Sequence record: NZ_CP137560.1
DNA from: a plasmid
DNA: 64,000 nt
Direction: 5' to 3' (one strand)
Both the position numbers and the translations under genes were made by a program. Positions 1 to 15,291 of this stretch are shown here, piece by piece; position 1 is the first letter of the stretch, and every line of letters starts with the position of its first letter. The notes beneath the pieces are model-generated. The model was not told the origin of the DNA, did not search any database, and saw only the letters and a program-made list of their open reading frames with translations.

Positions 1-255
1 CAGAGACAAATTTTTGCTCTTTGGTTGGATATTGAAAAAATGCTTCATAATTTCTAAACTCTATAACTACTTTTTCCAAAGGTCACCATCCCTATACGTA
101 TGCTTAATCTCGTAATAAACCGCTACCAGAATAGCTACAATGACAATGCCTAAAGCTACTATCAGTCCCATAACTCCTACAAACAAGTTGGAATTTCAGC
201 AGAGGATAACTCCTTGACGAACTCCATAAGGTTTCTGTGTCCCTTATATAGGACA

Positions 256-828
256 TCACAGTTCTTGGTTTTTTTTTTGGTTCCTTTGCTGAAGGGTCTT
301 GGAAATCGTTTTCCCCAAATCTGTGTTTGGGAAGAATAGATAGACTTCATCAAAGTCATCGCTATCCACAACCATGTGCATGAAGTTAGAAACATGTGAC
401 ATGATGATACAGGTTGCTGCTTGAGGTAGGCGGAAGTGATTCATACCCTTGAGTTCACAAAAGGCAAGATAATCCAAGAAATCATAAAACAAGCAGCACA
501 CGTGTGTTACATTCTGCCTATGTGGACGAAGTGTTATGGTTGCCGTTGTCTTCAATGAAAAAGGGCGTTGCGTATATTCAGGATTGAAAACTTCATATCC
601 TCCAATATCATTTTTCATGCCGATTCCCTGATAGCATTTATTTACACAGAGAAACTCTACCCTTGACAGGCTCAGCGGTAATCTTGAAAAGCCCATATCC
701 TTGAGCATTTCCTTGTCTGCTTTGTTAAGCCTCACAAGTCTTATGTCATCAGTAGTGTAAATAAATGATGAAATTTTAAGGTTGTTCATTGTCATGTTTA
801 TTTTGGTTGTTATTATTTTATATTGCAT
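256..828 (-). CDS. hypothetical protein, mobile-element associated; overlaps the primase gene start by 11 nt (translational coupling)
   Basis: 190-aa ORF with no motif I recognise. It lies at the 3' end of the primase/loader/initiator gene string on the same strand. Confidence 0.35.
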   Translation of the reverse strand: MQYKIITTKINMTMNNLKISSFIYTTDDIRLVRLNKADKEMLKDMGFSRLPLSLSRVEFLCVNKCYQGIGMKNDIGGYEVFNPEYTQRPFSLKTTATITLRPHRQNVTHVCCLFYDFLDYLAFCELKGMNHFRLPQAATCIIMSHVSNFMHMVVDSDDFDEVYLFFPNTDLGKTISKTLQQRNQKKNQEL

Positions 829-1864
829 CTACCTGATGGAGCATTTCCCAGAGATTCTCAGAATTGCCTCCACCTGCAAAAAAATCACTCACGTCTTTTG
901 ACTGTTTACTACCTGGCAACAGTAAGTCTATCTTAGCTACAGGATACTTATCCTTCAATTCACGGACTCTTGAACTTGACTCTGCTTTACCAGTAGAGTC
1001 CGTGTCGTACAGGAATATTATCTTTGAGAAACGCCTGGCAAGATCATCCATGATAGATGCATGCATCTTGGCGGTCTCACTATTCAAGCATATGGCAGGA
1101 AATCCATGGGCAGCCAAAGCTAGTACATCCTTTTCGCCGCCAGTTACGATTACATATTCACCAGAAGAGGGCAGTTGCTCCTTTCCAAAGAGATAAGGCG
1201 AAGGTAGCTTTCCTGCATATAGAAAACGGTTCTCAGATCTAGGTCTATAGACCTTGAGCCCCTGACCACCATCAAAGAAATAACCATAGCAGGGAGTCAA
1301 TGCAGTGGAATAGATTCCATATTGACCTCCAGATGGGTTAGTAAACAAACAACTCTTCAAACTTCTAACATGATATTTTTGAAGAGTATCTTCGCTTATA
1401 CCATAATGTTCCCAATAGGAAAGTCCATCCTGCGAGAAAGTTTTCTCTTCCGTCGCAAAAGTAATCAAACCGTCTTTCTTGGAAGACGGAATTATACGAA
1501 TTTCATTGCAGGTGCCCTTTATGGGAAGTCTGGAGGCATCATGCTGATCACCAAATACCCCCAGGCACATATCTTGGTCGATAGCCTTCAACAGTCGAAC
1601 AAACTCCATCTGAGGATTGATGCCAAGAACCAAACCGGCCACAGCAAAGCAATTTCCTGAGAACCTGCCATCGCCAAAATCCTGCAAATAATAATAGGGC
1701 AGACCACCCGGTTTCTGATTACAGTAGAGCTTGCATGATGGACGAATATCATCCTCACGGAAAGGACTACGAAATTTTGGCTTGAGACATTCCTTACCCA
1801 GATAATGGACAAAGATATCCAAACCACCTGAAGTCTTTCTCAAGATTATCTCTTTTTCAGTCAT
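818..1864 (-). CDS. DNA primase, toprim-domain (phage/mobile-element type)
   Basis: C-terminal region VIVTGGEKDVLALAAHGFPAICLNSETA ... IIFLYDTDSTGK has the toprim acidic motifs (E...DxD). Its position with the helicase-loader and initiator genes supports the call. Confidence 0.6.
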   Translation of the reverse strand: MTEKEIILRKTSGGLDIFVHYLGKECLKPKFRSPFREDDIRPSCKLYCNQKPGGLPYYYLQDFGDGRFSGNCFAVAGLVLGINPQMEFVRLLKAIDQDMCLGVFGDQHDASRLPIKGTCNEIRIIPSSKKDGLITFATEEKTFSQDGLSYWEHYGISEDTLQKYHVRSLKSCLFTNPSGGQYGIYSTALTPCYGYFFDGGQGLKVYRPRSENRFLYAGKLPSPYLFGKEQLPSSGEYVIVTGGEKDVLALAAHGFPAICLNSETAKMHASIMDDLARRFSKIIFLYDTDSTGKAESSSRVRELKDKYPVAKIDLLLPGSKQSKDVSDFFAGGGNSENLWEMLHQVDAI

Positions 1865-2577
1865 ACTAAAACCTTGCTAAGCAATTGTGAATAATTGCGA
1901 TAGTTAGTATCAGGCATGGTCACGACCTCCATCATATGTTTCACTCTATCTGCCGCTCTATCGCCATAACGATTTCGAATAACATCCGATGGCAAGTTTG
2001 TGGTAACGATGGTAATCAGACGATTCTCATAACGAAATGCCAATAACTCTGCAAACGGGTTGCATTGCTGTCCATAGTTCAGAATCTTCTCTGGCTCCGC
2101 ACCCAAGTCGTCAATTGCCAAAAGTGCCTCTCTTTGATATCTCTGGAATTTCTTAGGCTCATTCACATAGACATTGCAAAGCTGAGTGGCAGATATGACT
2201 ACAAGACCAGCCGAAACTTGATGGGATGGGTTTGACTTGATAGGATCTTGTATATCCAATGATAAAACGAGTTTCTGAATAGCCTTGACTATTGTCGTCT
2301 TACCAGTCCCACCTAAACCACATAGCCATAACCCACACTTATAGCTATATCCCACAAGCCATCCTGAAATCATAGCCAAAGCATTCTCATGCTCAGGGCG
2401 ATGAATGTAATGAATACTGGCATCATTCACGCAATTTACATAAGCCTCCGTCAAGGCATAGTGGCAGAATGATTGGTTAAGGGGCAATCTGAAAATACCT
2501 TCTGGGGTTCGTGTTGAACGAAGGCGATTCATAATCCCAATCTGCTTAAATGTCAAATTCGTTTCTATTAATTCCAT
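1861..2577 (-). CDS. AAA+ ATPase, DnaC/IstB-like helicase loader
   Basis: Walker A GLGGTGKTT, Walker B-like LLAIDDLG, 238 aa. It overlaps the primase start by 4 nt. Confidence 0.6.
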   Translation of the reverse strand: MELIETNLTFKQIGIMNRLRSTRTPEGIFRLPLNQSFCHYALTEAYVNCVNDASIHYIHRPEHENALAMISGWLVGYSYKCGLWLCGLGGTGKTTIVKAIQKLVLSLDIQDPIKSNPSHQVSAGLVVISATQLCNVYVNEPKKFQRYQREALLAIDDLGAEPEKILNYGQQCNPFAELLAFRYENRLITIVTTNLPSDVIRNRYGDRAADRVKHMMEVVTMPDTNYRNYSQLLSKVLV

Positions 2578-2602
2578 TTGTAATTGATGTATAAAATGTT
2601 AG

Positions 2603-3910
2603 TTAGAACTGATTTGTGTATATCTTTCCTGAACTTGATGACTTTGGGGTAAACTTGGAACCATACTCCAGAGTACCAGTTCGCGCCTTCTGTTTGTTGA
2701 CCCAATCACAGAAATGACTCATATAATCTTGAAAATTTTCATGGGAATCTTTTCCTCTGCACAGTATATCAAGCTCAAAAGATTCCAGTAAATGCCTAAC
2801 CACTTCAACTGAATCCAGCCGATAACGCTTACAAATACCTGAAAGCCATCTGCTGTTTTGGATCAAACTATCGTAGTAGCTTTCTTTGCTTGGTTTCTTT
2901 GCTTGGTTTCTTTCAACCTCCACCAATCCAGGGCTTTCTTGAAAAGCATCATACGCACACATACACGCGGATGATGATATTTTATCTTTTTCTTCTTTAT
3001 ATCTTTCTATATTATGTGTCAGTTGTTCGTCTCCACTTTGTCGGAAGTTCGTCGGTCGTATGTCTGTGCTTTGTCGGTTGTTTGTCACCAGTTTGTCACC
3101 TCTAAAATTTTCAGTCTTATAACCGTATGGTACACAACTGGTTACAGGATTACACCCGCTGGTTACTTCTTGTCCAAAATCAACATTTTGGAAATAAATA
3201 TTATTTTGTTGGACAAAGTTATTTTGGATAATGTTTGTGTTTGATTCTGTATTGTTAGAACTGTCTTGATAATGGCAATAATTAGAAATAGTGATAAGGT
3301 TGGAAAGGAAAGCAGAGTTTGGAAGGATTTCAATCTCACCTGTATTCTGTAACTTTTTGAGACAAGTCTTTATGCTTTGCACAGAAATACCAGTTTCATG
3401 TTGGAGGATATTCTTGCTGAGAGCCAGCTGAGCACGCCCAAGGGGACCATTAGGCAAATCTTGTCTCTGATAAGAGGCTCTTAAAAGCAAGTGAACAAAA
3501 AGGTGAACCATTTCAGCATTGGCATACCAACTCCAATCAAGAATCTTTCTATAAAGTTTAATCCACCCCACAGCATTGCTTTCTTCATCGAACTGCTGAA
3601 AACTACCATAATCCAGCATGGTAATAATAGTACCGCGGCTGTTGGAAACAATAGTAACTTCATTTGTTTTGGACAGCTTTTGCAAGCAAGTGCGCACATT
3701 ACGTGGTGAAAGACCTGTTCTGCCTGAAATCTGAGCATGGCTTGTCACCAATTGTCCAGGCATAATGGTCAAAGTTTTGTATTCGGTCTTTTTCACATTA
3801 GCCTGGAGCAACAAATACAGATATAGGTGAACCATATTGGACTCACTATACCATCGCCACGAAGTAAAACTTCTTGGCAGTTTTAGCCATGTACCATTTG
3901 TTTGTATCAT
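2603..3910 (-). CDS. replication initiator / replisome organizer with duplicated N-terminal winged-helix domains
   Basis: Two tandem ~100-aa repeats (W..KLPR ... MVHLYLYLLLQAN.. and WIKLYRKIL..MVHLFVHLLLRAS..), each with an HTH-like segment (SVQSIKTCLKKL, NVRTCLQKL). The C-terminus has a DnaD-like F.DY..HF..WV pattern. Confidence 0.5.
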   Translation of the reverse strand: MIQTNGTWLKLPRSFTSWRWYSESNMVHLYLYLLLQANVKKTEYKTLTIMPGQLVTSHAQISGRTGLSPRNVRTCLQKLSKTNEVTIVSNSRGTIITMLDYGSFQQFDEESNAVGWIKLYRKILDWSWYANAEMVHLFVHLLLRASYQRQDLPNGPLGRAQLALSKNILQHETGISVQSIKTCLKKLQNTGEIEILPNSAFLSNLITISNYCHYQDSSNNTESNTNIIQNNFVQQNNIYFQNVDFGQEVTSGCNPVTSCVPYGYKTENFRGDKLVTNNRQSTDIRPTNFRQSGDEQLTHNIERYKEEKDKISSSACMCAYDAFQESPGLVEVERNQAKKPSKESYYDSLIQNSRWLSGICKRYRLDSVEVVRHLLESFELDILCRGKDSHENFQDYMSHFCDWVNKQKARTGTLEYGSKFTPKSSSSGKIYTNQF

Positions 3911-3953
3911 TTCATTTCATTTAAAAACACCTACTTGGTAGGTTGATAATTTA

Positions 3954-4244
3954 TTAAGTTAGTTCCTGAACAATTTTAAAGGAGAGACTATTTCTACCAC
4001 TTTTTGTAGATAAAACAAGACTATCATCCAGGACTTTAACCACTCGGATCTGTGTGAGGTTTCTGCTTCCACGATGCCATCTCACAGAGGTGTTCTCTAT
4101 AATGTTTTTAATAATGGTCAATCGCTTCTTACAAGCGTCTGTTGAGTCTTGCCAATCATATACCGTTGGAGGAATCTTATATAGCAGACACACCATCCAG
4201 GTTGGTTTAGTATCACAATGTATTGTTTTCTTTATCTTATACAT
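3954..4244 (-). CDS. hypothetical small protein, first gene of the replication-module operon
   Basis: 96-aa ORF immediately downstream of the AT-rich region, co-oriented with the initiator gene. No motif. Confidence 0.3.
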   Translation of the reverse strand: MYKIKKTIHCDTKPTWMVCLLYKIPPTVYDWQDSTDACKKRLTIIKNIIENTSVRWHRGSRNLTQIRVVKVLDDSLVLSTKSGRNSLSFKIVQELT

Positions 4245-4269
4245 TAGGAATGCAATTTATAACACCTAT

Positions 4270-5082
4270 TAGTCAAGAGCGTATATATCCCTTATGGGGA
4301 ATCATTCTGAAAATACCAATGATACTCCTTACTTAATTCTACATAAAAAGTAACTTAACTATATTTCAATCCTATGTTGATTTGACACAATATATATTTG
4401 GCCTTATTCTTCTATTTATTGCATCTATTTTCTTCTAGGTGTTGTTGTTAATACTTCTATTCTTGATATTATTATAATGTCAAACTATAAAAGTCTAAAC
4501 ATTTTTCATGTTGCAAAAATAATAAAATCCTATCATATCTATAATAAATATGTAATATATTAACATATTTTATAAACTTAAAGATACATATTTTAATAGC
4601 TTACTTACAATATGATTATTTTACATGACTTTTTAAGCCTAATTTTAACAAACTGTTACTTTAGTATATTATAACATTAGTTTATGATATAATCAGTATG
4701 CGTAGTCATAATGTCAACTATATTTGCTAATAAAGAAAAAAATACAGATAATATGACACGTATTTAAATCTTTATTCGTACCTTTGCATCGTCTTTCGAG
4801 ACATCATTTTCGTGGGAAAAAGTAAAGTGCCTCAACACTGTAAAATCGCCAAAATTTAACATTAATGCATGAGGCACGGAGCAACTCATATACGTGGGTT
4901 GTCTTTACGTTATTTGCTGCATTATGGGGTTTGGCGATTCCAACAGTGGGTATGGTAGGCAGCCCACTTTTTATTTTTAGGAATTTCAGTATTCAGAAAG
5001 GCTATAGGGAGGAAATAATTTTCAACAAAATAATATATATCCTTTATTTAATCATTTTTTTGCCAAATTATAATTTGACTAT
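4270..5082. promoter_or_regulatory. ~0.8 kb AT-rich ORF-free region between the divergent replication operon and the XRE regulator; candidate origin/control region
   Basis: Low-complexity AT-rich sequence with no credible ORF, flanked by the divergent replication module (-) and the HTH gene (+). Contains an 8-bp inverted repeat GTGCCTCA..N37..TGAGGCAC near 4829-4881. Confidence 0.35.
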
Positions 5083-5391
5083 ATGAACGGAAATGAACTA
5101 AGGAACATACTTGCAGCAAAGGGAATCATACATAAAGACCTTGCGGAGAAAATGGGCATCACACAATCTTGTTTCAGCCAATTGTTAAGAGCACAGGACA
5201 TACGAACAGGATTGCTGGAGAAGATTTGTGATATTTTGAATGTTCAAATGGATTTCTTTTATGGAGACACAAAATATCTAGCACAAAACAATCAACTCAT
5301 AAGAGAAGACATCAAGTCTCTAAGTAAACAACTGGACAAGATACAAATCCAGTGTTCTCAAATCATTTATCAAAATACTAAAGCCAGGTAA
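5083..5391 (+). CDS. XRE-family helix-turn-helix transcriptional regulator (Cro/CI-like)
   Basis: NELRNILAAKGIIHKDLAEKMGITQSCFSQL is a classic XRE HTH. 102 aa. Confidence 0.65.
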   Translation: MNGNELRNILAAKGIIHKDLAEKMGITQSCFSQLLRAQDIRTGLLEKICDILNVQMDFFYGDTKYLAQNNQLIREDIKSLSKQLDKIQIQCSQIIYQNTKAR

Positions 5392-5410
5392 AAGATATAT
5401 ATAAAGACGC

Positions 5411-5452
5411 CCTCATAGCCAAGTATATCTCAACTTTAGCATGAGGGCTTAC
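5411..5452. terminator. bidirectional hairpin terminator between the convergent HTH and rtcB genes
   Basis: GCCCTCAT..loop..ATGAGGGC 8-bp stem with flanking A/T runs. Confidence 0.4.
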
Positions 5453-5473
5453 AAAAATGTTAGACAAAGACTT

Positions 5474-6646
5474 TTATCCCTTGATGACGGCAATAGGCAG
5501 AAGATGGGTTCTTATTTTAACCAAGTCCATCTCTTGTGATAGAACCTCCTCGATGTTCTTATATGCAGAAGCAGCTTCCTCCAAATCCTGCTGGCATCTG
5601 ATGGCATGAACGATGCCTTTTTCTTCAAGCTTGTTAATCTCATCCTCAAGGTTCAATGTTCTCACGGCCTCGGTACGGCTCATGGCTCTACCTGCCCCAT
5701 GGGAACAACTCATAAAACTCAGTGGATTGCCAAGTCCCTCCACAATGTAGCTGCTGGTACCTTGTGAACCTGGTATGATTCCAATTTCACCCTCACGTGC
5801 GCTAGTTGCTCCTTTTCTATGCACTATACACATATCGTCAAAATGGGTTTCCCATGCCGCATAGTTATGGGCAATATTAATCATGGACTCAAACGTCACT
5901 TCCGGTAAGGCATCAGCAATGACTTCTTCTATACGCTCCATCATCAGTTTTCTATTGCACAGTCCAAAAGCTATGCAGTATTCCATCTCATGCCAATAAT
6001 CATTGAATTCCTGTGTCTTCAACGGAAGGAAAGGTAAATTGATCTCTGGCTTGACCACAGAGAAATATCTCTCATTGAGCACGGCAGCCTTATTGTTATA
6101 ATAGTCACCAACTTGCTTGCCTAGGTTTCTGGAACCTGAATGAATCATAATCCAAAGAAAGCCCTCGTCATCTTTCTGCAACTCTATGAAATGATTGCCT
6201 CCTCCAAGTGTACCCACCTGTTTGGTGGCTGAAACATATTGACGCTTGACCACTGTCATATTCTCAATATCAAATTCTTGAGGCATATACTTCTCGTCCT
6301 GGGCCGTCTTGTGATGTTCCATTCCAAGAGGTATCTGCTTTCTGATTCCACGCATAATTTTCTTGCGTAGAACGTCCTGTGCTATGGTCTCTACCTTAAT
6401 ATTAGTCTTAACTGCACACATGCCACATCCAATGTCCACGCCAACGGCATTTGGTATCACGGCATTCTTAGTTGCCAATACTGAGCCGATAGGCATACCT
6501 TTACCACCGTGCAAGTCTGGCATAAGCGCCAAGTGGTGATACAAAAAAGGCAAGCTACAGAGGTTCGTTATTTGCCTCCACGCCGTTGCATCACAAACAG
6601 ATGCCCACATCTTAACAGGGGTGTTATTAATCAAAAATTCTTTCAT
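5474..6646 (-). CDS. rtcB: RtcB family RNA 3'-phosphate/2',3'-cyclic phosphate ligase
   Basis: MPDLHGGKGMPIGSV, GVDIGCGM, GGGNHFIELQ and SCSHGAGR motifs, all typical of RtcB metal/GTP-binding sites. 390 aa. Confidence 0.85.
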   Translation of the reverse strand: MKEFLINNTPVKMWASVCDATAWRQITNLCSLPFLYHHLALMPDLHGGKGMPIGSVLATKNAVIPNAVGVDIGCGMCAVKTNIKVETIAQDVLRKKIMRGIRKQIPLGMEHHKTAQDEKYMPQEFDIENMTVVKRQYVSATKQVGTLGGGNHFIELQKDDEGFLWIMIHSGSRNLGKQVGDYYNNKAAVLNERYFSVVKPEINLPFLPLKTQEFNDYWHEMEYCIAFGLCNRKLMMERIEEVIADALPEVTFESMINIAHNYAAWETHFDDMCIVHRKGATSAREGEIGIIPGSQGTSSYIVEGLGNPLSFMSCSHGAGRAMSRTEAVRTLNLEDEINKLEEKGIVHAIRCQQDLEEAASAYKNIEEVLSQEMDLVKIRTHLLPIAVIKG

Positions 6647-6687
6647 TACTATAGTCTCCTATTCTTTAAAATTTGTACTGCAAAATT

Positions 6688-6781
6688 AGTCTATAAGTGC
6701 GCAGTATTTTTGCGCAGTTGGAAATAATTTCTTGCTTGGGTCAAAAAAAACTTAAGTGCGCAGATAGATTGCGCAGTTTTT
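6688..6781. promoter_or_regulatory. operator-like array of four palindromic TGCGCA hexamers (two pairs, 13-bp spacing, pairs 59 bp apart) in the rtcB promoter region
   Basis: aagTGCGCAgtattttTGCGCAgtt at 6695-6718 and aagTGCGCAgatagatTGCGCAgtt at 6754-6777, directly upstream of the rtcB start at 6646. Confidence 0.45.
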
Positions 6782-6828
6782 GTTTCTCTTTGCAGCTTAA
6801 GAACAAAAGAATAGGATTATGATATTAT

Positions 6829-6852
6829 AAGGTGGAGAATTGTCTCTCCACC
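6829..6852. terminator. hairpin terminator downstream of the 124-aa gene
   Basis: GGTGGAGAattgtcTCTCCACC, a perfect 8-bp stem. Confidence 0.45.
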
Positions 6853-6901
6853 TCTTTATGTTTATACTCAAATCCTTTATATGTTATTGCATGGATATCA
6901 A

Positions 6902-7276
6902 CTACTCTGTTGGGGAGTATGCCAATATTCCAACTTGCATCCTAGTCAGATTGTATATGTCCTCGATAACAGACCAGGAGCATTTGTCTGAACCAAACAT
7001 CTTCTGAGCTTGAATCAGTTGATGCAGTTCTTTTTGTATGTCTCGCTTACCGTAAGGAATACGAAGCACCATGTTGATGGTGCTGGCCAGTCTAGCTGAA
7101 GGATTTAGTAATGCATGCATAAAGAACACATTCAGATCACTATCACAATCATTTATAGCGAACCTATAGTTTCCTGTTTCCAAAATTTTGCAGATGTTCG
7201 TATATCCTTGTGCCCCAGCAATGATTATATCACCATCAAAGAAGAAATCCAATATATCTTTTTTCTCTTCATCCAT
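6902..7276 (-). CDS. hypothetical acidic protein (124 aa), second gene of a two-gene transcript upstream of rtcB
   Basis: ORF with no motif I recognise. Co-oriented, with a 25-nt gap to the upstream 150-aa ORF. Confidence 0.4.
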   Translation of the reverse strand: MDEEKKDILDFFFDGDIIIAGAQGYTNICKILETGNYRFAINDCDSDLNVFFMHALLNPSARLASTINMVLRIPYGKRDIQKELHQLIQAQKMFGSDKCSWSVIEDIYNLTRMQVGILAYSPTE

Positions 7277-7301
7277 ATAGTAATATTTTAAATCATCATG
7301 C

Positions 7302-7754
7302 TTAAAAAGGAATCACTATACCAGGATTGTGCGATAACAATGTTTTCTCCTGGAAGTATGAAGGATTGTATGAAATGATCCTTTTACCTCCATAATGCGT
7401 AGAGGAGAACAGAGACTTGCATCTATCTTCCCAGTTTTTGAAAGCCTTTTCCGAATATACTTTTTGTGGGTACAGTTCGTCGAGTTCTTTTTCCCGGCCT
7501 ACTTTCTCATTGAGAAATGATGGTCGTGAATTTCCTTGCTCGTCATATTTGCTCTTGGAGCACAACACGTAGGAAGAGAATGGCATTTCCCTGGATTTTT
7601 TCTCCATCCAATCAACACCCTTAATCAGACTTTCCATGTGAGCTTCCCTTATTCTAACCCATGCTCGCCTTGTTGGTTTTGCTGTTTCTTGCATGAAGTC
7701 AGAATATGCCCATTTTTTAAGTGGCCCCAGAAATAATTTAATCATTGCCGACAT
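7302..7754 (-). CDS. hypothetical basic protein (150 aa)
   Basis: ORF with K/R/E-rich composition. No TM segment, no motif. Confidence 0.4.
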   Translation of the reverse strand: MSAMIKLFLGPLKKWAYSDFMQETAKPTRRAWVRIREAHMESLIKGVDWMEKKSREMPFSSYVLCSKSKYDEQGNSRPSFLNEKVGREKELDELYPQKVYSEKAFKNWEDRCKSLFSSTHYGGKRIISYNPSYFQEKTLLSHNPGIVIPF

Positions 7755-7890
7755 TTTTGCATTTTTTTAGCTGGATTTGTACATTCTATCATATTATTTT
7801 GTATCTTTGCCAAAAGGATGGAAAGTTGCCATTCTTCTCACGCTTTTAGATATGAGAAAAATTGTTTTAGTCGTTTTATTAACCATGTGT

Positions 7891-9327
7891 ATGATGATGG
7901 AAGCAAAGATACGTAAACCTGCCGTAGCAGGACAATTTTATGCAGGCGATACCCGGGAACTTCGCCATGACTTGAAGGAGTGTTTTCTGCAATGCAAGGC
8001 TTCACCCTTGAAACCTGTGCAAGCTATCATTGTCCCACATGCCGGTTATGTCTTCTCTGGCGTAACCACAGCATCTGCTTTTGCCTGCATCCAACCAGAC
8101 GCACAATATGAACACATTTTCTTGTTGGGACCTAGTCATCATGTTTATCTTGACAAGGCTTCGGTGAATATTGAAGCGACAGAATATGCAACGCCACTTG
8201 GTAATGTCCCGGTGGATACTGCACTCTGCAAATCTCTGTTGGAACAGAGCGATGCTTTTACCTATAATAATAAGGCACACGACAGCGAGCACTGTCTGGA
8301 AGTGGAGCTTCCTTTCTTGCAGTATCACTTCAAGAAGGTAGTTCCCATCGTTCCAATCATCATTGCCACGCAAAAGTTGAGCATACTTCAAAAGATAGCC
8401 CGTGTCCTCCAGCCATATATGAACGAAAGAAATCTGTTTGTCATCAGTAGTGATTTCTCACATTATCCAGCTTATCTTGATGCCAAAAGGGTGGATGGAC
8501 TTACTAAGGATGCCATCATGACGGGCAAGGCGGAAGCATTCGTAAAAGCCATCTTGCACAACCAGGAATTGAACATCAACAGTCTTGCCACAAGTGCTTG
8601 TGGAGAAGCGGCTATTGCCACACTCCTGATGATGACAGAAAATGATGCCAACATCCATCCACATCACATCATGTACCGCAATTCGGGTGATTCGCCCTAC
8701 GGAGGAAAGGATAGGGTAGTAGGGTATCATTCATTTATCTTTACAAGAGATGAAGTAAAGCCGGTTGAATCAAGAGAAAAAGACGAGGCAAACTTTTCAC
8801 TAAGTGACGAAGACAAAAAGATGCTCAAGGAGATAGCTTACGATGCCATCAGGATGACCTTGGAGGGTAGGAGTTATCAATTTCCCAGCCATCTGTCGGA
8901 AAAACTAAAGACCCTATGTGGAGCTTTTGTATCTCTGCATAAGCACGGCAGGCTGAGAGGTTGCATCGGACATTTCGGAGAGGATATGCCACTTTATAAG
9001 ACGGTCTGCCAAATGGCGAAGGCTGCAGCCTTTGAAGACCCAAGATTTCCAGCAGTCAATATAACCGAGCTTCCAGACATCGACATAGAGATTTCCGTGC
9101 TTACCCCGATGAAGCGCATCCATTCCATCGACAAATTTCAACTGGGCAAGCAAGGCATTTACATGCGTAAGGGCAATCGTGCAGGAACCTTCTTGCCACA
9201 AGTTGCCGATGAGGTGTCTTGGACTAAGGAGGAATTTCTCGGACATTGTGCGCAAGATAAAGCTGGCATTGGCTGGGAAGGCTGGAGAACTGCCGAACTT
9301 TATACCTACGAGGCAATCATATTCTGA
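7891..9327 (+). CDS. AmmeMemoRadiSam system protein B (MEMO1-like) fused to protein A (AMMECR1 domain)
   Basis: N-terminal half PAVAGQFYAGD...IIVPHAGYVFSG is the MEMO1 family. C-terminal half GAFVSLHKHGRLRGCIGHF is the AMMECR1 signature. A TATCTTTG -7 box at 7799-7806 argues against the 7777 start. 7852 is an alternative start. Confidence 0.8.
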   Translation: MMMEAKIRKPAVAGQFYAGDTRELRHDLKECFLQCKASPLKPVQAIIVPHAGYVFSGVTTASAFACIQPDAQYEHIFLLGPSHHVYLDKASVNIEATEYATPLGNVPVDTALCKSLLEQSDAFTYNNKAHDSEHCLEVELPFLQYHFKKVVPIVPIIIATQKLSILQKIARVLQPYMNERNLFVISSDFSHYPAYLDAKRVDGLTKDAIMTGKAEAFVKAILHNQELNINSLATSACGEAAIATLLMMTENDANIHPHHIMYRNSGDSPYGGKDRVVGYHSFIFTRDEVKPVESREKDEANFSLSDEDKKMLKEIAYDAIRMTLEGRSYQFPSHLSEKLKTLCGAFVSLHKHGRLRGCIGHFGEDMPLYKTVCQMAKAAAFEDPRFPAVNITELPDIDIEISVLTPMKRIHSIDKFQLGKQGIYMRKGNRAGTFLPQVADEVSWTKEEFLGHCAQDKAGIGWEGWRTAELYTYEAIIF

Positions 9328-9381
9328 TTTTAAACATCCAAAGAATTCAAAATCGTATGATAAAACAAAAGGTTAGGAAAC

Positions 9382-10269
9382 ATGAAGGAATGTAGATATT
9401 ATACGAAGATAGAGGAGGGCAAAGATGGAGGCAAGAGCCTGAAGGTAAGATGCGAGCTTTGCCCCCATCGTTGCGTCATCCCGGATGGAAAGCATGGGAT
9501 ATGTGGAAGCCGATGGAATTTCAAGGGCAAATTGTATTCCATTGTTTATGGCAAGCCATGTGCCTTGGCAGATGACCCTGTCGAGAAGAAGCCTCTCAAT
9601 GAGTTTCATCCCGGCACCCGATGCCTGTCCTTGTCATGTACGGGGTGTAACTTTCGGTGTCTTAACTGTCAGAACTATGACATTTCGCAAGCGCTGCCCT
9701 CTGATGTGAATTTTTATGAGCTATCACCCCATGAAATTGTTGACATCGCCATGCAGCATCATCTGCCAGGAATCGCATTTACCTATACAGAGCCTCTTAC
9801 CTATTATGAGTATATCCATGACATAGCGAAGGTATCACATGAGTATGGGCTATGGAATATTCTCGTCTCGGCAGGTTACATCAATCCAGAGCCCTTGCAG
9901 GAGCTCCTTCCTTATATAGATGCCGCTAACATAGACATCAAGGCTTTCTCCGATACGATGTATATGCATCAATGTGGTGGACATCTAAAACCAGTACTTG
10001 ATACCTTGCTAGCCATGCAGAAGTCTGATGTTCATCTGGAGATAACCAATCTCTTGATTCCAGGTGTCAATGATAGTGAGAAGATGATCAGGAAGATGTG
10101 CCGCTGGCTCGTCTCGAATGGCTTTGCCCAGAATCCACTACATTTCAGCAGGTTCTTCCCTCTTTATAAGATGCAGGATGCTTCTCCAACGCCAAAAGAA
10201 ACCATATATTTGGCAAAAAGGGTTGCATTGGAAGAAGGGATGAAATTTATTTACTTGGGAAATATATAG
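9382..10269 (+). CDS. AmmeMemoRadiSam system radical SAM enzyme
   Basis: CTGCNFRCLNC (CxxxCxxC) radical-SAM cluster motif, 295 aa. Located immediately downstream of the MEMO1/AMMECR1 gene. Confidence 0.8.
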   Translation: MKECRYYTKIEEGKDGGKSLKVRCELCPHRCVIPDGKHGICGSRWNFKGKLYSIVYGKPCALADDPVEKKPLNEFHPGTRCLSLSCTGCNFRCLNCQNYDISQALPSDVNFYELSPHEIVDIAMQHHLPGIAFTYTEPLTYYEYIHDIAKVSHEYGLWNILVSAGYINPEPLQELLPYIDAANIDIKAFSDTMYMHQCGGHLKPVLDTLLAMQKSDVHLEITNLLIPGVNDSEKMIRKMCRWLVSNGFAQNPLHFSRFFPLYKMQDASPTPKETIYLAKRVALEEGMKFIYLGNI

Positions 10270-10439
10270 CAAATATATGATACCTGCACCATTCCATTTG
10301 TACCGATTGGAGCTATCATTGGCAGCAGCCGTGACAAGCTCTTCGTTATCAGCAAGGTCTGGAATACATGTACACATAAGGATGATTATGATAAATTATC
10401 TTTACGCCCTTATTCCTTGAACAAATATAGAAGTTTGTT

Positions 10440-10814
10440 ATGGATAGCTTATGGCTACGTATGATGATGAATCCTGGAGGCACCCAATATCTGCCTCAGA
10501 ACATCAACGGCATGAATATTCTGCCATTGTTCTATGGTAAGCAGATTGATACAGACGACCGAGTTCTTTATTGGGAATTCCCAGGTAAGCAGCGTGCTGC
10601 GCGCCACGGTGACTGGAAGGCTGTTACCATCAAGCCTAACAAGCCTCTGGAACTCTACAATCTGCATGAAGACCCAGAAGAGAAGCATGATCTCGCCAAG
10701 AAATATCCGGAAATGGTAATCGGTTTTGACAAGGTGATGAAGGAAATGCGTACTCCATCAGAGAACTGGCCAATACCGGAAGATGCGGAAAGTGGGAAAA
10801 GTAATCGGCTTTGA
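10440..10814 (+). pseudogene. C-terminal fragment of an arylsulfatase (gene remnant)
   Basis: LYWEFPGKQRAARHGDWKAV...LELYNLHEDPEEKHDLAKKYPE matches the conserved sulfatase C-terminus. There is no N-terminal catalytic region upstream. Confidence 0.5.
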
Positions 10815-10941
10815 GTAAATATCAGTCACGCTATCTTTCAATTTAACATTCAACATTTCTCTTTCAGCATATTCCAAAGGAACAGCGCAACCATGCTCCT
10901 ACCACCACATTGGCGCACGCTCCACAGTACCAGCGAAGAAA

Positions 10942-11178
10942 TCAAACACAGCGCCTATAGTCCCCACATGACAATGGATGTTCGAGAGTACGTCCATTTT
11001 CCTGCTTTGGCGCTGTCATACCAATCCAGAGGAGATCAGGGTTAGCCGCATTGATAGCATCAATGATAGCCTTATTATAAGAATGAGCATTTACAGTATT
11101 AATGAGCAATTTGCCCTCTGGCAGCGAGGCGAGTTCCGCCTTACTACCCAAAATATCCAAAGATTTTAAACAAAACAT
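10942..11178 (-). pseudogene. N-terminal fragment of a WecB/TagA/CpsF-family glycosyltransferase (gene remnant)
   Basis: LINTVNAHSYN...PDLLWIGMTAPKQE resembles the TagA/WecB core. The ORF is only 78 aa and diverges afterwards. Confidence 0.4.
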
Positions 11179-11479
11179 TATAGTAATTTTTTAATTATCA
11201 AATATAAGCGAAGCTAAAGGAGTCTCAATCATAAGAATTTTACAGCGCCTTTCCAACCTCCGATAGGGAAACACCACAAAAACAGCAATCCTCTAGCAAG
11301 GCGGTCCCATCCCGCACAAAAAACTGACGAGACCTCTGATGGTCCGTCAACCCTAAAGCGAAGCGGTTAAGAGCGACAGGAGGGAGCGGTTACATCCTCT
11401 CCCTTCTGAGAAGGGCAGAGGCTTGGAGAGGGATGTGGAGCCCTCTTTGGAAAGAGCGGGCACTGAAAAAGTCCCTTTT

Positions 11480-12660
11480 GGGGTTATGGTAGTTTAACAT
11501 TCTGCTTTTAAAAGAGCCTCCCTAAAAGTTGCATATGTGCAATATTTTTTGTATCTTTGTAGGAAAATGCAAGGACTATGCTAGAGCAACAACAGACCAT
11601 ATCATTCAGTGATTATTCAAGTTTGTATGACTTGATTATCCCAAAAGACAACCTGCTCCGCCAGATTAATGACCTGATGGACTTTAGTTTCGTATACCAG
11701 GAATTGCAAGACAAGTATTGTCATGACAATGGTCGTACAGCAGAGAGTCCTATTCGTATGTTTAAGTATCTCCTTTTAAAGGTGATCTATAACATATCGG
11801 ATGAGGATGCCCGTACAGGACATAAAACAGCTCATTCTTCATTCTTTGGCTATAAGACGCATATGGCTATGAGCGATGAGAGAATTATCACCGCAGCTGC
11901 TGTCACTTCCAGCGAGAAGGGTGATGGACAGTAATTGCCAGAATTGATAAAAAAGACAGAGGAAGCAGGAATGGAAGTTGATTCCATAGTAGCAGATAAG
12001 GCATATTCCAGCAAGGAGGATCTCAAAATGGCAAAGGAAAACAATATGCGCCTCTCTGCTCGTTTAAGCTCTGCAATTGATGGTAAACGAACAAACAAAC
12101 TCCCTTTTGAATACAATAAGGATGCAGATCTGTACGTCTGCCCAGCAGGGCATCTGGCGAAATGGAAAGAGATGAATAATCGCAAAAATGACAAGCGTCA
12201 CAGAAACTCCAGCATTTTATTTTGATGTGGACAAATGCAAGGTCTGTCCATTACGTGAAGGTTGCTACAAGGAAGGAGCCAAGACAAAAACATATGCGGT
12301 TATCATCAAATCGGATGAACAGTTGGAGCAAATCGAATATCAAAAAACAGAAGAGTTTATAAATCTTTAGAGGAAACGATACAAGATAGAAGCCAAGAAC
12401 TCCGAACTTAAGAATGTCTTAGGATATGACAGAGCCCTGTCATACGGTTTGTCGTGCATGGAAATGCAGGGAGCTTTGATTATTTTCGCTGCAAATGTGA
12501 AGAGAATCATCAAGTTGATGCAAAATGCATAAGGGGGAAGCAGATTCCTCTATATATTGCCGAATTAAGCGCCAGAAAACGCTATAGAAAGCTATTTGGG
12601 GCTATATTCCTGTCCCAAAAAGTATTCCACTTTTTTTAAAAGATGAAATGCTTCTTGGTC
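11480..12660 (+). mobile_element. degenerate IS element (IS1182/IS5-type), internally deleted
   Basis: A transposase reading frame is broken over at least 4 frames/ORFs (11578-12530). A GC-rich structured sequence lies upstream at 11221-11480. Confidence 0.55.
11578..12530 (+). pseudogene. IS1182/IS5-family DDE transposase, multiple frameshifts
   Basis: N-terminal DLMDFSFVYQELQDKYCHDNGRTAESPIRMFKYLLLKVIYNISDE (transposase N-terminal domain); central ADKAYSSKE; C-terminal RKRYKIEAKNSELKNVLGYDR. These are split across frames. Confidence 0.6.
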
Positions 12661-12864
12661 AAGAATTAAAGTTCAAAAACAAGCTATGCAACTTAAAATT
12701 GGGTACCTTTTTCAGTGCCTTCACTGGGCTAGGAACTTTTGGGCCTTCAGCCCGTACTTGAACCACATGCGAAGCTTCGTGTTAATATAGGTTAACTTCA
12801 TTAACAAAAACACTTCTTTTCCGTTTATGTAGTAGTTTTGAACAAATAAAACAAGTGAGAGCAA

Positions 12865-13365
12865 ATGACAGAGAATGAATTCATCCATATCGTTCCGCAG
12901 TTGCGGCAGATAGCCTTGCAAATCAGTCAGGGTTATGGCGTTGGCTGTGATGAGGCTGAGGACATCGCACAGGATGCGATGCTCAAGCTCTGGGCTATCA
13001 AGGAAGACATTCTGTCTGCTGCTCATGCCAAAGGTTCGATGGGCTGCATTACCAAGCATCTTTGCATCGACTTCTTTCGCAAGCGAAAGATGATTTCGAT
13101 AGATGCCCAGCCTTTCGATAAGTCGCCTAGCTACTATGCGCCGCCCGATGTGGAAGTGGAAAACTCGGAGAACGAACAGTGGCTCCAAAAACGCCTCAAG
13201 GCGCTGCCCTCCAACCAGTATCAGGTGCTTTATCTGCGGCAAGTAGAGAAGAAAAGCTCTGAGGAAATAGCGCAAATCGTGGGTATCACCACAGAATCTG
13301 TATCCGTGTTGCTTTCGAGGGCAAGAAAGCAGATGTTGCAGGAAATCAAGAAAAGATGTCGATAG
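12865..13365 (+). CDS. ECF-subfamily RNA polymerase sigma-70 factor
   Basis: 166 aa with a sigma-70 region 2 (DIAQDAMLKLW) and region 4 HTH (SSEEIAQIVGITTESVSVLLSRARKQM). Confidence 0.8.
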   Translation: MTENEFIHIVPQLRQIALQISQGYGVGCDEAEDIAQDAMLKLWAIKEDILSAAHAKGSMGCITKHLCIDFFRKRKMISIDAQPFDKSPSYYAPPDVEVENSENEQWLQKRLKALPSNQYQVLYLRQVEKKSSEEIAQIVGITTESVSVLLSRARKQMLQEIKKRCR

Positions 13366-13413
13366 CCCTTATATATAAAAATAGGTATAATTAATAAAGG
13401 AGGAAAAATTGAT

Positions 13414-14226
13414 ATGAAAGAAAAAGATATACGTTTGTTGCTCAATTGGTTTATGGCTGGTGAGACTACTCTTGAAGAGGAGGCTCTGCTAAGGGAGTGG
13501 TTTCGCCAGCATCCCGATGTGAGCGATGACCTGAAGGAATACCAGATGATGTTTGGATATTTCGACGAGGGGATGCCCCTCGAACATGAGCCGGGGATGC
13601 CCCTCGAACATGAGGCTGAGAAGTGTGAAGAAAATGTCGCCCATCCAAAGACTTCAAGGACTTCAATGTCTAAAGCGAGAATGCGCCGCCTATGGTTGCC
13701 GATTAGCATGGCTGCATCCATCGCCCTGCTCATTGCATTTGCTGTTCCTCGCATAGGGAAACAGATAGGACAACAGGCAGGACATCAGGATGATTCGAAG
13801 ATGGCTCAACTCGAAGGCAGAACGACTCCGGAGGATACAGATTCAGCTGTTGTTCAAAAGGAAAAAACGCCAGATGCCGATCTCTCCATGCCTGAAAAGA
13901 TAAAAAAGTCGGGTGATTCCGTATCTCCCAAAACAAGGAAGCACAAGCAGAGGAAATATCGTCAGCATCTGTTTGCTCCTGCTCCTCCAAAGCTTTGGAT
14001 AGCTCAGAATATTGCTACCGATTCTTTGTTGGCAGAGCCGGAAAAGCTTGCCGATAAGCATCTCTGTGAGATGGAGGCACAGCAGAATGAAATGTTCTTC
14101 AAACTCTATCTCATCAATGCTCTTCAGACCCAGTTGCTTAATGCCGATATTGCCAGTGCCTCGTTCGAAAGCGAGGAGAATGTGCATGATGAGGACCATG
14201 TGAGTGATGACCAGGAGGTTTATTAA
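13414..14226 (+). CDS. putative anti-sigma factor (single-pass membrane protein)
   Basis: Immediately downstream of the ECF sigma gene. One TM helix (WLPISMAASIALLIAFAV). Contains an internal 24-nt tandem duplication (GMPLEHEP/GMPLEHEA). Confidence 0.5.
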   Translation: MKEKDIRLLLNWFMAGETTLEEEALLREWFRQHPDVSDDLKEYQMMFGYFDEGMPLEHEPGMPLEHEAEKCEENVAHPKTSRTSMSKARMRRLWLPISMAASIALLIAFAVPRIGKQIGQQAGHQDDSKMAQLEGRTTPEDTDSAVVQKEKTPDADLSMPEKIKKSGDSVSPKTRKHKQRKYRQHLFAPAPPKLWIAQNIATDSLLAEPEKLADKHLCEMEAQQNEMFFKLYLINALQTQLLNADIASASFESEENVHDEDHVSDDQEVY

Positions 14227-14253
14227 CAAGAAACAATTAAAAAGAAGAAGAAT

Positions 14254-15201
14254 ATGAAAACAACTTTTAAATTAGCATTTGTGGCTTGCCTGTTGGTGCT
14301 CTCTTCAGCTTGCCATGCCCAGAAGCCTATACCGAACATCGACCAGGCTTTTGATAAATTCGTACAGGATTTGTCGCAAGACGACCTCGTTACTTCTTCC
14401 ACGATGAATACCTATAATATAGGTATGATGAAGGGATTTGAGTTCGCCGTTCCCAGGAAGAAGCAGAAAATGGTGGATACTTTTCATAAGGCTTTGTTGA
14501 GCAATAGTCGTCTCGCTTATATCAGTTTTACCAAGAAAGCGGGTTCTGCCAGCATTGAGACGAATCGGGTGGGATATGGCAATAACAATTCCACGACCTA
14601 CGAGTTTGGTGCTCACAAGGACCGCAACTATAACCTGCAGTATTTCCGTGACTGCAAGGATTCTACCATGCGATATGTTTATGCCTTGGTATGGTATCCA
14701 GGAAAGAATGATGTGGTATTGGGCAGTGTGTATAAGTTCCACTCCAAGGATCCGCAAACCTATAAGAAGCCATCCGCCAATGTGAAGTCATTTTCTTATA
14801 CGCAGCCATTCTCTTATACGAAACCGTCTGTTCAAAGTCTGGATTCTCTTGTCTTGCTGGCCAAGAACTTCAAGTTTGACAAGAGTTTGGCTGGCAGTTA
14901 TTATTTCGATGAGACTCCTCCCAAGGATGCGGCAGAGTTTATGATGCAACTCAATACGCTTCGCGCTGCCTTTAAGAATGCCAAGGATTTATACCCTTAT
15001 CTCGGAAATCAGGTGTTTCGGCGTACCCTCCAGACGGGCATTGCCAACAAAATAGTCAAGCTTTGTAAGGGATACGGCAAGTTGCTGAATGCTGACGAGA
15101 AGAAGTTCTGTGCCACTTCGCTGAATAAGATGAAGAAGGATACAGACGATGAATATCTGCAAAGTCTTCTGGAACTGACTGCCAATTCTTTGAGAAAGTA
15201 G
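14254..15201 (+). CDS. secreted hypothetical protein (signal peptide), third gene of the sigma/anti-sigma module
   Basis: MKTTFKLAFVACLLVLSSACHAQ signal peptide, 315 aa, no catalytic motif recognised. Confidence 0.5.
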   Translation: MKTTFKLAFVACLLVLSSACHAQKPIPNIDQAFDKFVQDLSQDDLVTSSTMNTYNIGMMKGFEFAVPRKKQKMVDTFHKALLSNSRLAYISFTKKAGSASIETNRVGYGNNNSTTYEFGAHKDRNYNLQYFRDCKDSTMRYVYALVWYPGKNDVVLGSVYKFHSKDPQTYKKPSANVKSFSYTQPFSYTKPSVQSLDSLVLLAKNFKFDKSLAGSYYFDETPPKDAAEFMMQLNTLRAAFKNAKDLYPYLGNQVFRRTLQTGIANKIVKLCKGYGKLLNADEKKFCATSLNKMKKDTDDEYLQSLLELTANSLRK

Positions 15202-15227
15202 TAAGTTCTTGATGTATAAGCTTTGGA

Positions 15228-15291
15228 AAATGTGGAATTCTCTCTCAAAATATCGCTTTTAAACGATATTTTGAGAGAGAATTCCACATTT
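15228..15291. terminator. 28-bp perfect inverted repeat (hairpin), bidirectional terminator or truncation junction
   Basis: AAATGTGGAATTCTCTCTCAAAATATCG - 8-nt loop - CGATATTTTGAGAGAGAATTCCACATTT. Confidence 0.55.

Follow-up and report, generated by a model that had tools for sequence, protein, structure and literature searches.

Positions 5474–7754 of the 64,000-nucleotide stretch of sequence record NZ_CP137560.1 analyzed here (the window), from a gut Segatella/Prevotella genome, hold a gene for the RNA ligase RtcB and, upstream of it, two small genes, ORF150 and ORF124, all three on the minus strand. This segment is probably the junction of two unrelated pieces of horizontally acquired DNA: an island with rtcB at its edge, and the remnant of a gene pair. 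The pair is best explained, from sequence comparisons, as what is left of a 224-residue plus 124-residue gene pair native to Prevotella/Segatella transfer elements, which covers approximately 6800–7711 and would have become lodged beside a Memo-AMMECR1 gene independently of rtcB. As for the rtcB DNA, the most that can be stated is that it is an integrated, self-replicating mobile island; rtcB is its outermost gene, and the island varies between strains, runs from position 1 of the window to about 6800, and extends past the left edge. The elements that meet here are the following:

5474–6646, minus strand: rtcB, intact gene for a 390-residue 3'-phosphate/5'-OH RNA ligase (Pfam, PHROG, and structure alignment)
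6717–6866, no strand: zone in which the rtcB island meets the resident ORF pair (three homology limits)
6829–6853, minus strand: hairpin downstream of ORF124, with a G+C-rich stem of 9–10 bp (nine pairs, five of them G-C)
6902–7276, minus strand: ORF124, acidic, 124 residues, pI 4.93, intact in the window (ORF call)
7302–7754, minus strand: ORF150, basic, 150 residues, pI 9.45, 5'-truncated form of a 224-residue protein (ORF call)

ORF150 and ORF124 are 25 bp apart, and a spacer of 255 bp lies between ORF124 and rtcB. The distribution of these genes among relatives carries the reading as a junction. In relatives at the same species level (L001–L005) and in the Segatella hominis reference (L025), the ORF pair stands beside a Memo-AMMECR1 gene whose protein is 99% identical to that of the window (synonymous divergence, dS, of 0.03–0.05), and neither rtcB nor the replication genes of the island accompany it; in fact, rtcB, the block of helix-turn-helix (HTH) and replication genes next to it, and the tRNA array described below are all absent from these strains. 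Conversely, L027–L030 and L039–L040 hold an 82%-identical rtcB at a different chromosomal site, beside HK/Carb_kinase genes, where it is followed by an XRE HTH gene, an ORF of 94–96 residues, a DUF7833/DnaD-like gene, a DnaC-like ATPase, a primase, and small ORFs, with both ORF150 and ORF124 missing. The rtcB island and the ORF pair are therefore distributed independently of each other.

The limits of DNA homology locate the seam between the two pieces. The related island of L027–L030, which matches the window from its left edge with 66–75% nucleotide identity, stops at 6717, ~70 bp upstream of rtcB; homology to the unit formed by ORF124 and its hairpin in L024 stops at about 6798; and homology to the rtcB-less L001–L005 and L025 covers 6866–10405, ending just beyond the ORF124 stop codon. 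The first-pass annotation had placed rtcB, preceded by the two ORFs, inside a mobile-element block. Part of this stands, since rtcB lies on strain-variable mobile DNA and homologues of the pair are found on mobile elements; the pair itself, by the limits at 6717, ~6798, and 6866, falls outside the block of rtcB. The same annotation had a hairpin terminator separating the pair from rtcB. The hairpin is real, with its stem and a regional folding energy of −22.9 kcal/mol (z −2.5), while the terminator part holds less well, a T-run following the stem on the plus strand only and the minus-strand tail, TTATAATATC, offering a weak U-tract to ORF124. The hairpin is kept 3' of ORF124 in the L018 duplicate described below (copy B) and in L024, a locus devoid of rtcB; this joint travel argues that it is the own 3' element of ORF124, and an imperfect predicted terminator.

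A record of how both pieces were joined is found in L016, L018, L020, and L021, which carry a tandem 168-bp duplicate of the 3' end of ORF124. Copy A is the 3' end of the resident ORF124 and breaks off where that of the rtcB-less strains does. Copy B begins 7 bases after copy A, at about codon 80 of ORF124, and spans the stop codon and the hairpin into the rtcB promoter. The single ORF124 3' end of the window is 98% identical to copy B of L018 and 89% identical to copy A, so that the last 168 bp of ORF124 in the window appear to derive from the copy on the rtcB side. On this basis, the rtcB island would have arrived with a partial ORF124 and its terminator already attached and would have been joined to the resident relic; in the lineage of the window, recombination between both copies would then have rebuilt one intact, chimeric ORF124. 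The homology offered by the multiple copies of the pair would have served as the recombination arm joining the island to this locus. The linkage between rtcB and ORF124 is thus historical and physical, limited to copy B, and is not a conserved co-occurrence.

The pair itself belongs to narrow families. The first-pass annotation had recognized no family for either the basic or the acidic protein, an impression confirmed by the absence of matches in Pfam, PHROGs, NCBIfam, and PADLOC, including any match to a toxin fold or to an antitoxin or DNA-binding fold; what surfaced (SBE2_M, AbiZ, DapD) was noise below the thresholds, and tblastn found no match in 50,697 phage records. The profile searches and structure predictions it had proposed for both ORFs yielded no family and no confident fold: PDB profile searches with the family alignments (A2 and A3) gave chance-level matches only, and AlphaFold2 models built on the family alignments, with pLDDT values of 40 for ORF124 and 43 for the 224-residue form, are unusable. 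The 226 homologues of ORF124 are all close, and full-length homologues of both ORFs are at least about 77% identical. An exhaustive HMMER search of 1.84 billion proteins with the profile of the 224-residue family returned 17 cluster representatives, all of them close relatives or fragments, and a scan of one genome per species located ORF124 in two genomes, a Prevotella sp. metagenome-assembled genome and S. hominis. A distant relative (P0215) lies on a 613-bp contig, where no gene context is readable.

Most relatives of ORF150 are 224 residues long. The ORF150 of the window aligns with them from residue 16 (AYSDF...) onward (alignment A1), its residues 1–15 being unrelated to the family and read from flanking DNA, and the DNA homology to full-length copies ends at 7709–7711; ORF150 is therefore a 5'-truncated derivative of the 224-residue protein that has lost a lipoprotein-like targeting signal. 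The 89 residues missing from the front begin with MKRKMMIDKKKVFMAVGVLLIGLAGIIAC, in which, by eye, a basic n-region and a hydrophobic stretch lead into a lipobox-like IIAC. No promoter motif was found in the 98-bp spacer upstream of ORF150. This protein is probably inactive as it stands; ORF124 may be expressed or silent.

The two genes stay next to each other in each of the four contexts examined. In L011–L015, genes for proteins of 224, 125, and 271 residues lie in a transfer element, among a Mob_Pre relaxase, ArdC-N/MPTase polyvalent proteins, SSB, an M23/glucosaminidase gene, and HipBA. In L006–L010 and L024, they are part of a four-gene islet encoding proteins of 224, 261, 224, and 124 residues; the extra genes of this form (L006 8283–9747; L024 1743–3210) encode a protein of 224–226 residues with C-terminal hydrophobic segments and one of 260 residues, with no family match. 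Decay is evident in several lineages. ORF124 is frameshifted in L001–L010, and both ORFs are broken in the rtcB-positive L016, L018, L020, and L021, to 145 and 61 residues; the window keeps intact frames, as do L017, L019, L022, L023, and L034–L037. Both are real coding families, with ratios of nonsynonymous to synonymous substitution rates (dN/dS) of 0.10–0.40 for the ORF150 core and 0.18–0.40 for ORF124. Between chromosomal alleles, ORF150 has a synonymous divergence of 0.27–0.31 and ORF124 one of 0.58, which is 6–15 times the value of the adjacent Memo gene, which argues that the alleles of the pair at this locus were replaced by recombination with other copies rather than having diverged in place.

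This conservation could also be taken to mean that the pair is alive, as a still-functional, self-contained two-gene module under selection and independent of rtcB, for example, a membrane-associated exclusion/immunity or anti-defence function inherited from conjugative elements. Such a reading would fit the pairing kept in four contexts, the dN/dS range, the intact frames, and the neighborhood of the full-length pair, with ArdC, SSB, and relaxase genes. It is unlikely for the pair in the window, however, since the chromosomal ORF150 lacks the 89 residues that hold the signal/lipobox-like segment, no promoter motif precedes it, frameshifted alleles are common, and the low dN/dS may itself be inherited from full-length donors by recombination, as the dS of the pair far exceeds that of its flank. 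The remnant of a transfer-element gene pair is, therefore, the interpretation retained here for the upstream piece.

The other piece ends in an RtcB that stood up to closer inspection, both as the full-length enzyme that had been called and as one separated from its usual partners. The 390-residue protein matches PF01139 over profile positions 1–426 of 426 (E 1.3e-109, Pfam) and PHROG 1075, tRNA splicing ligase (E 6e-117). Alignment to the Pyrococcus horikoshii RtcB (1uc2) indicates that D44, D71, C74, N151/H152, H169, H260, and H316 are conserved, all positions for metal ligands and for the GMP-accepting His nucleophile being present; in the P. horikoshii enzyme, the Mn-binding residues and the GMP-accepting His are D65, D95, C98, N202/H203, H234, H329, and H404. 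Judged by its residues, the enzyme appears catalytically complete, and it is predicted to carry out the GTP/Mn-dependent joining of 3'-phosphate or 2',3'-cyclic phosphate ends to 5'-OH ends. In NCBIfam, it scores 154 bits against the PrfH-linked type TIGR03073 (cut-off 271.8), and the equivalog cut-off of PRK09588 is likewise not reached. No rtcA, rtcR, or prfH, nor any release factor-like gene, is called within ±10 kb of rtcB in the sister contigs L016–L023, and the scanned ORFs of the window contain no Pfam families for RtcA or for the sigma-54 activator RtcR with its CARF domain. RtcB proteins of 390 residues are widespread across Bacteroidales, and a scan of IMG/VR returned a single relative, 53% identical.

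The DNA on either side of rtcB contains candidate control elements:

6681–6688, minus strand: TAATTTTG, candidate Bacteroidetes −7 promoter box for rtcB (match to the TAnnTTTG motif)
6694–6719 and 6753–6778, no strand: two 26-nt direct repeats, candidate operator upstream of rtcB (repeat family D1, 81% identity, spacing 59)
5409–5448, no strand: imperfect hairpin GCCCTCAT...ATGAGGGC, separating rtcB from the convergent HTH gene (read from the sequence)

The box lies ~35 nt upstream of the rtcB ATG, and the same TAATTTTG also precedes rtcB in the diverged island L027; TAnnTTTG is the −7 consensus of Bacteroides promoters. The 26-nt repeats stand directly upstream of the box, and each contains CTGCGCA-N6-CTGCGCA, a pattern with two matches in the window and none in 100 shuffles, so they are probably the operator of rtcB, as a candidate. 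The proximal repeat is conserved in L027 in a degenerate form only. The TGCGCA repeats were also considered as a shared control of the tRNA array, an idea dropped on finding them absent from the array promoter; co-regulation of rtcB and the array is therefore not claimed. The hairpin at 5409–5448, which the terminator scan did not pick up, is a weak candidate for a possible two-way terminator.

Further along, the island carries a regulatory gene and a replication module:

5083–5391, plus strand: XRE/Cro-C1-type HTH regulator, 102 residues, convergent with rtcB and a member of the island (Pfam HTH_26, E 4e-10)
1–4244, minus strand: replication module of the island, running off the left edge of the window (PHROG and Pfam)
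2603–3910, minus strand: DnaD-like/DUF7833 protein (PHROG DnaD-like loader, 5e-39; Pfam DUF7833)
1861–2577, minus strand: DnaC-like ATPase (PHROG DnaC-like loader, 2e-20)
818–1864, minus strand: Toprim primase (PHROG DNA primase, 4e-28)
within 1–4244, minus strand: ORF of 190/177 residues, replication module
within 1–4244, minus strand: ORF of 96 residues, replication module

The XRE HTH gene keeps its position beside rtcB in the diverged island of L027–L030. Between it and the replication genes lies an 840-bp spacer (4245–5082) with ~30% G+C and short AT-rich repeats, of which the segment 4763–4910, containing the TACCTTTG promoter box, is 75% conserved in L027. This spacer may be an origin, a control region, or a small RNA. 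A prophage origin of the island was rejected: megablast of window 1–9500 against the phage collection (50,697 records) gave no match, IMG/VR held no relative of the DnaD-like protein, PHROG matches among island genes other than rtcB are confined to the replication genes, and no virion, packaging, or lysis genes were seen in the island. It may be a conjugative element, a satellite, or an island exchanged by recombination.

Sister contig L034 covers the same locus (position x of the window lies at 10790 − x in L034), with a 177-residue protein identical to that of the window, and extends the island past the left edge through further small ORFs to a 137-residue ORF and then a tRNA array. The 137-residue ORF (L034 15970–16383) shares 69% identity with residues 1–131 of the WYL/WCX regulator of L031, so that islands of the window type keep just the N-terminal winged HTH third of this regulator. 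The array consists of six tRNA genes (L034 16490–16982), only 4–6 bp apart: Thr-TGT, His-GTG, Gln-TTG, Ser-TGA, Arg-ACG, and Ser-GCT. It lies about 5.7–6.2 kb past the left edge of the window and ~10 kb from rtcB; in the sister contigs, the WYL fragment and the array are reached 9–11 kb further along the island. WYL/WCX regulators beside this RtcB lineage were located in two relatives:

9253–10278 of L031: WYL/WCX regulator
8393–9415 of L038: WYL/WCX regulator

In L031 and L032, whose RtcB is 86% identical, a 742-residue RING-like protein, rtcB, the full-length WYL/WCX gene, a His-Gln-Arg tRNA array (69% DNA identity to that of L034), and a polyvalent LPD13/MuF_C protein are contiguous. In L038, with a 74%-identical RtcB, rtcB is followed by a TROVE/Ro gene and preceded, at a distance of ~590 bp and on the other strand, by the WYL/WCX gene. 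What recurs beside this RtcB lineage is, thus, a WYL-type regulator together with structured RNAs (tRNAs), and not ORF150 and ORF124. Both relatives show further RNA-like segments. Between rtcB and the TROVE/Ro gene of L038, 77 nt (11488–11564) match 23S rRNA positions 1081–1156 (Rfam LSU model, 54 bits) and may be an rRNA-mimic or Y-RNA-like partner RNA. Just 5' of the RING-like gene of L031, there is a 126-nt tRNA-like element (5477–5602; Rfam tRNA, 39 bits), with no ARAGORN call. A 515-residue gene at the far side of the L039 island was considered as a TROVE/Ro gene and rejected for want of a Pfam match.

With these partners, RtcB would reseal tRNA or rRNA cut by metal-independent RNases that leave 2',3'-cyclic phosphate and 5'-OH ends, while the six-tRNA array would provide substitutes or decoys for the targeted tRNAs. 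In combination, ligase and array would protect the host of the island, or the island itself as it enters, from anticodon-nuclease toxins or defences. The ORF pair would have no functional link to rtcB and no part in RNA repair.

The tie between rtcB and its replication block could also be fortuitous. Under this proposal, rtcB would be a resident gene of an older WYL–rtcB–tRNA locus, split by a separately inserted HTH–replication block of which it is not the cargo. The contiguity of rtcB, WYL, and array in L031 and L032 is what such a history would leave behind, as is the arrangement of L034, where rtcB, the WYL fragment, and the array keep the same order and orientation with ~10 kb of genes, from HTH to a 278-residue ORF, between rtcB and the WYL fragment; the broad occurrence of the 390-residue RtcB in Bacteroidales also agrees with a resident gene. 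Nevertheless, rtcB is joined directly to the HTH–replication block in two lineages at different chromosomal sites, with 66–75% DNA identity, from which it follows that rtcB and block move together, and rtcB, block, and array are absent as a whole from the rtcB-less strains, all of which makes the proposal quite improbable. As for the first-pass suggestion that ORF150 and ORF124 are an accessory, anti-defence, or toxin–antitoxin pair of rtcB's own mobile element acting with RtcB, a view to which the adjacency of three genes on one strand, the basic/acidic make-up of two small proteins, the orphan families found on mobile elements, and the earlier rtcB–ORF124 contact recorded in copy B lend some color, it is highly unlikely and largely refuted by gene distribution, given that the pair occurs without rtcB in L001–L015, L024, and L025 (the co-occurrence across independent loci that had been looked for was not found), that rtcB or its island occurs without the pair in L027–L033 and L038–L040, that ORF150 is truncated and both ORFs are frameshifted in the rtcB-positive L016, L018, L020, and L021, that pair and ligase are set apart by a conserved hairpin and a promoter of rtcB's own, and that neither ORF matches any toxin, antitoxin, or defence model.

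Several observations sit uneasily with the preferred reading of a junction between an rtcB island and a gene-pair remnant. The copy of the ORF124 3' end on the rtcB side means that rtcB adjoined an ORF124 gene at least once before, which amounts to some historical linkage, and the open frames in the window, together with dN/dS values below 1, leave room for a residual function of ORF150 and ORF124. On the island side, no integrase, relaxase, att repeats, or left boundary were found within reach, and the sole transfer-type gene is a DUF4134 gene (L034 19906–20259), 14.6 kb from rtcB and maybe foreign to the island; genes of the DUF4134 type occur in Bacteroidetes conjugative transposons. Both the tRNA array and the WYL fragment are outside the window, their island membership resting on sister-contig synteny and the L031 parallel, and the lack of TGCGCA repeats at the array leaves its co-regulation with rtcB unsupported.

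On the other side of the pair, the fused Memo-AMMECR1 gene and a radical-SAM activase (window 7777/7853–10269) form a conserved chromosomal flank. Both genes constitute a pair of the AmmeMemoRadiSam type; the listed Memo-AMMECR1 ORF of 516 residues begins at TTG, and gene callers take the 477-residue ATG start at 7853. Beyond it, window 10440–12400 contains a sulfatase C-terminal fragment, a WecG fragment, and a split DUF772/DDE transposase, with a ~100-bp repeat at 11299–11410 that has three copies in L001. In the rtcB-less strains, the DNA 3' of the pair (~0.6–8 kb) holds defence-type genes, the site behaving as a variable defence/cargo hotspot. Downstream of the pair are two GmrSD-type genes in L025 (S. 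hominis; 11000–15288), a TIR-LRR gene in L004 (14091–15056), PIN_8 and DUF87 genes in L005 (17571–20453), and an NgoFVII-type restriction gene in L001 (17488–18522).

Both the presence of RtcB on mobile elements and its association with tRNA genes are known themes, of which the Segatella island with its WYL link is a further example. Jumbo phages supplement tRNAs with RtcB or Rnl ligases (Rnl1/Rnl2), countering anticodon nucleases (PMC7824862), and phage tRNAs evade tRNA-targeting defences (PMC10264068). The Segatella island resembles these systems in being a mobile element with an RtcB-type ligase and a compact tRNA array, the ligase being free of RtcA, RtcR, and PrfH. Unlike them, it is integrated and has a DnaD/DnaC/primase module, no virion genes were seen in it, and its array lies ~10 kb from rtcB and outside the window.

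In cyanobacteria, tRNA arrays, often plasmid-borne, adjoin rtcB and are co-regulated with it, the repressor TrcR binding to direct repeats in the promoters (PMC8421152, PMC10272220). This translational-stress regulon of the L-array (trn operon), rtcB, and the ribbon-helix-helix repressor TrcR shares with the island the neighborhood of tRNA array and ligase and the tandem direct repeats at the rtcB promoter. However, the repeat sequence differs, and the Segatella repeats stand upstream of the −7 box instead of over it and are absent from the promoter of the island's tRNA array. In addition, no ribbon-helix-helix repressor was identified in the island, whose candidate regulators are the XRE HTH protein and the truncated WYL protein.

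The enterobacterial rtc operon is induced by damaged tRNAs (PMC7790460). Both the RtcR–RtcB–RtcA system of Escherichia coli and Salmonella (with Rsr/Y-RNA in Salmonella; PMC7790460) and the RtcB2–PrfH ribosome-repair module (PMC9223846) share with the island the enzyme family and its chemistry, as well as the expectation of a ligand-sensing regulator beside the ligase, and the TROVE/Ro gene downstream of rtcB in L038 recalls the Salmonella arrangement. In contrast, the island has no RtcA, RtcR, or PrfH and scores under the NCBIfam equivalog cut-offs, and the neighbor of rtcB in this lineage is a WYL/WCX regulator, cut down to its winged HTH in the island of the window. As for the pair, its setting in L011–L015, among ArdC-like and polyvalent MPTase proteins, SSB, HipBA, and a Mob_Pre relaxase, is that of accessory regions of Bacteroidales conjugative or mobilizable elements, whereas the window holds an 830-bp fragment with no transfer genes attached and a truncated first gene.

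A broader proposal, tentative and rather doubtful as a whole, is that Prevotella and Segatella possess a transferable tRNA-protection kit, in which RtcB, a WYL sensor-regulator, and a compact array with a conserved His-Gln-Arg core would travel on self-replicating islands and act against tRNA-cleaving toxins or defences, and that, separately, the 224/124 pair would represent a new module of Bacteroidales conjugative elements, anchored in the membrane and active in exclusion or anti-defence, with its scattered copies serving as homology arms for island exchange. The His, Gln, and Arg tRNAs are isoacceptor classes targeted by known anticodon nucleases.

The 224/124 family is a compact, testable, and uncharacterized family of Bacteroidales transfer elements, present at this locus as a partly decayed relic. 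Orphan genes adjoining a gene of interest can be junction debris and not partners, and here a multi-copy relic would have acted as a recombination anchor. If the proposed role of RtcB and the tRNA array holds, abundant human-gut Segatella strains would differ by a mobile island for RNA repair and spare tRNAs, which could shape toxin-mediated competition, or the defence against phages and plasmids, in the gut.

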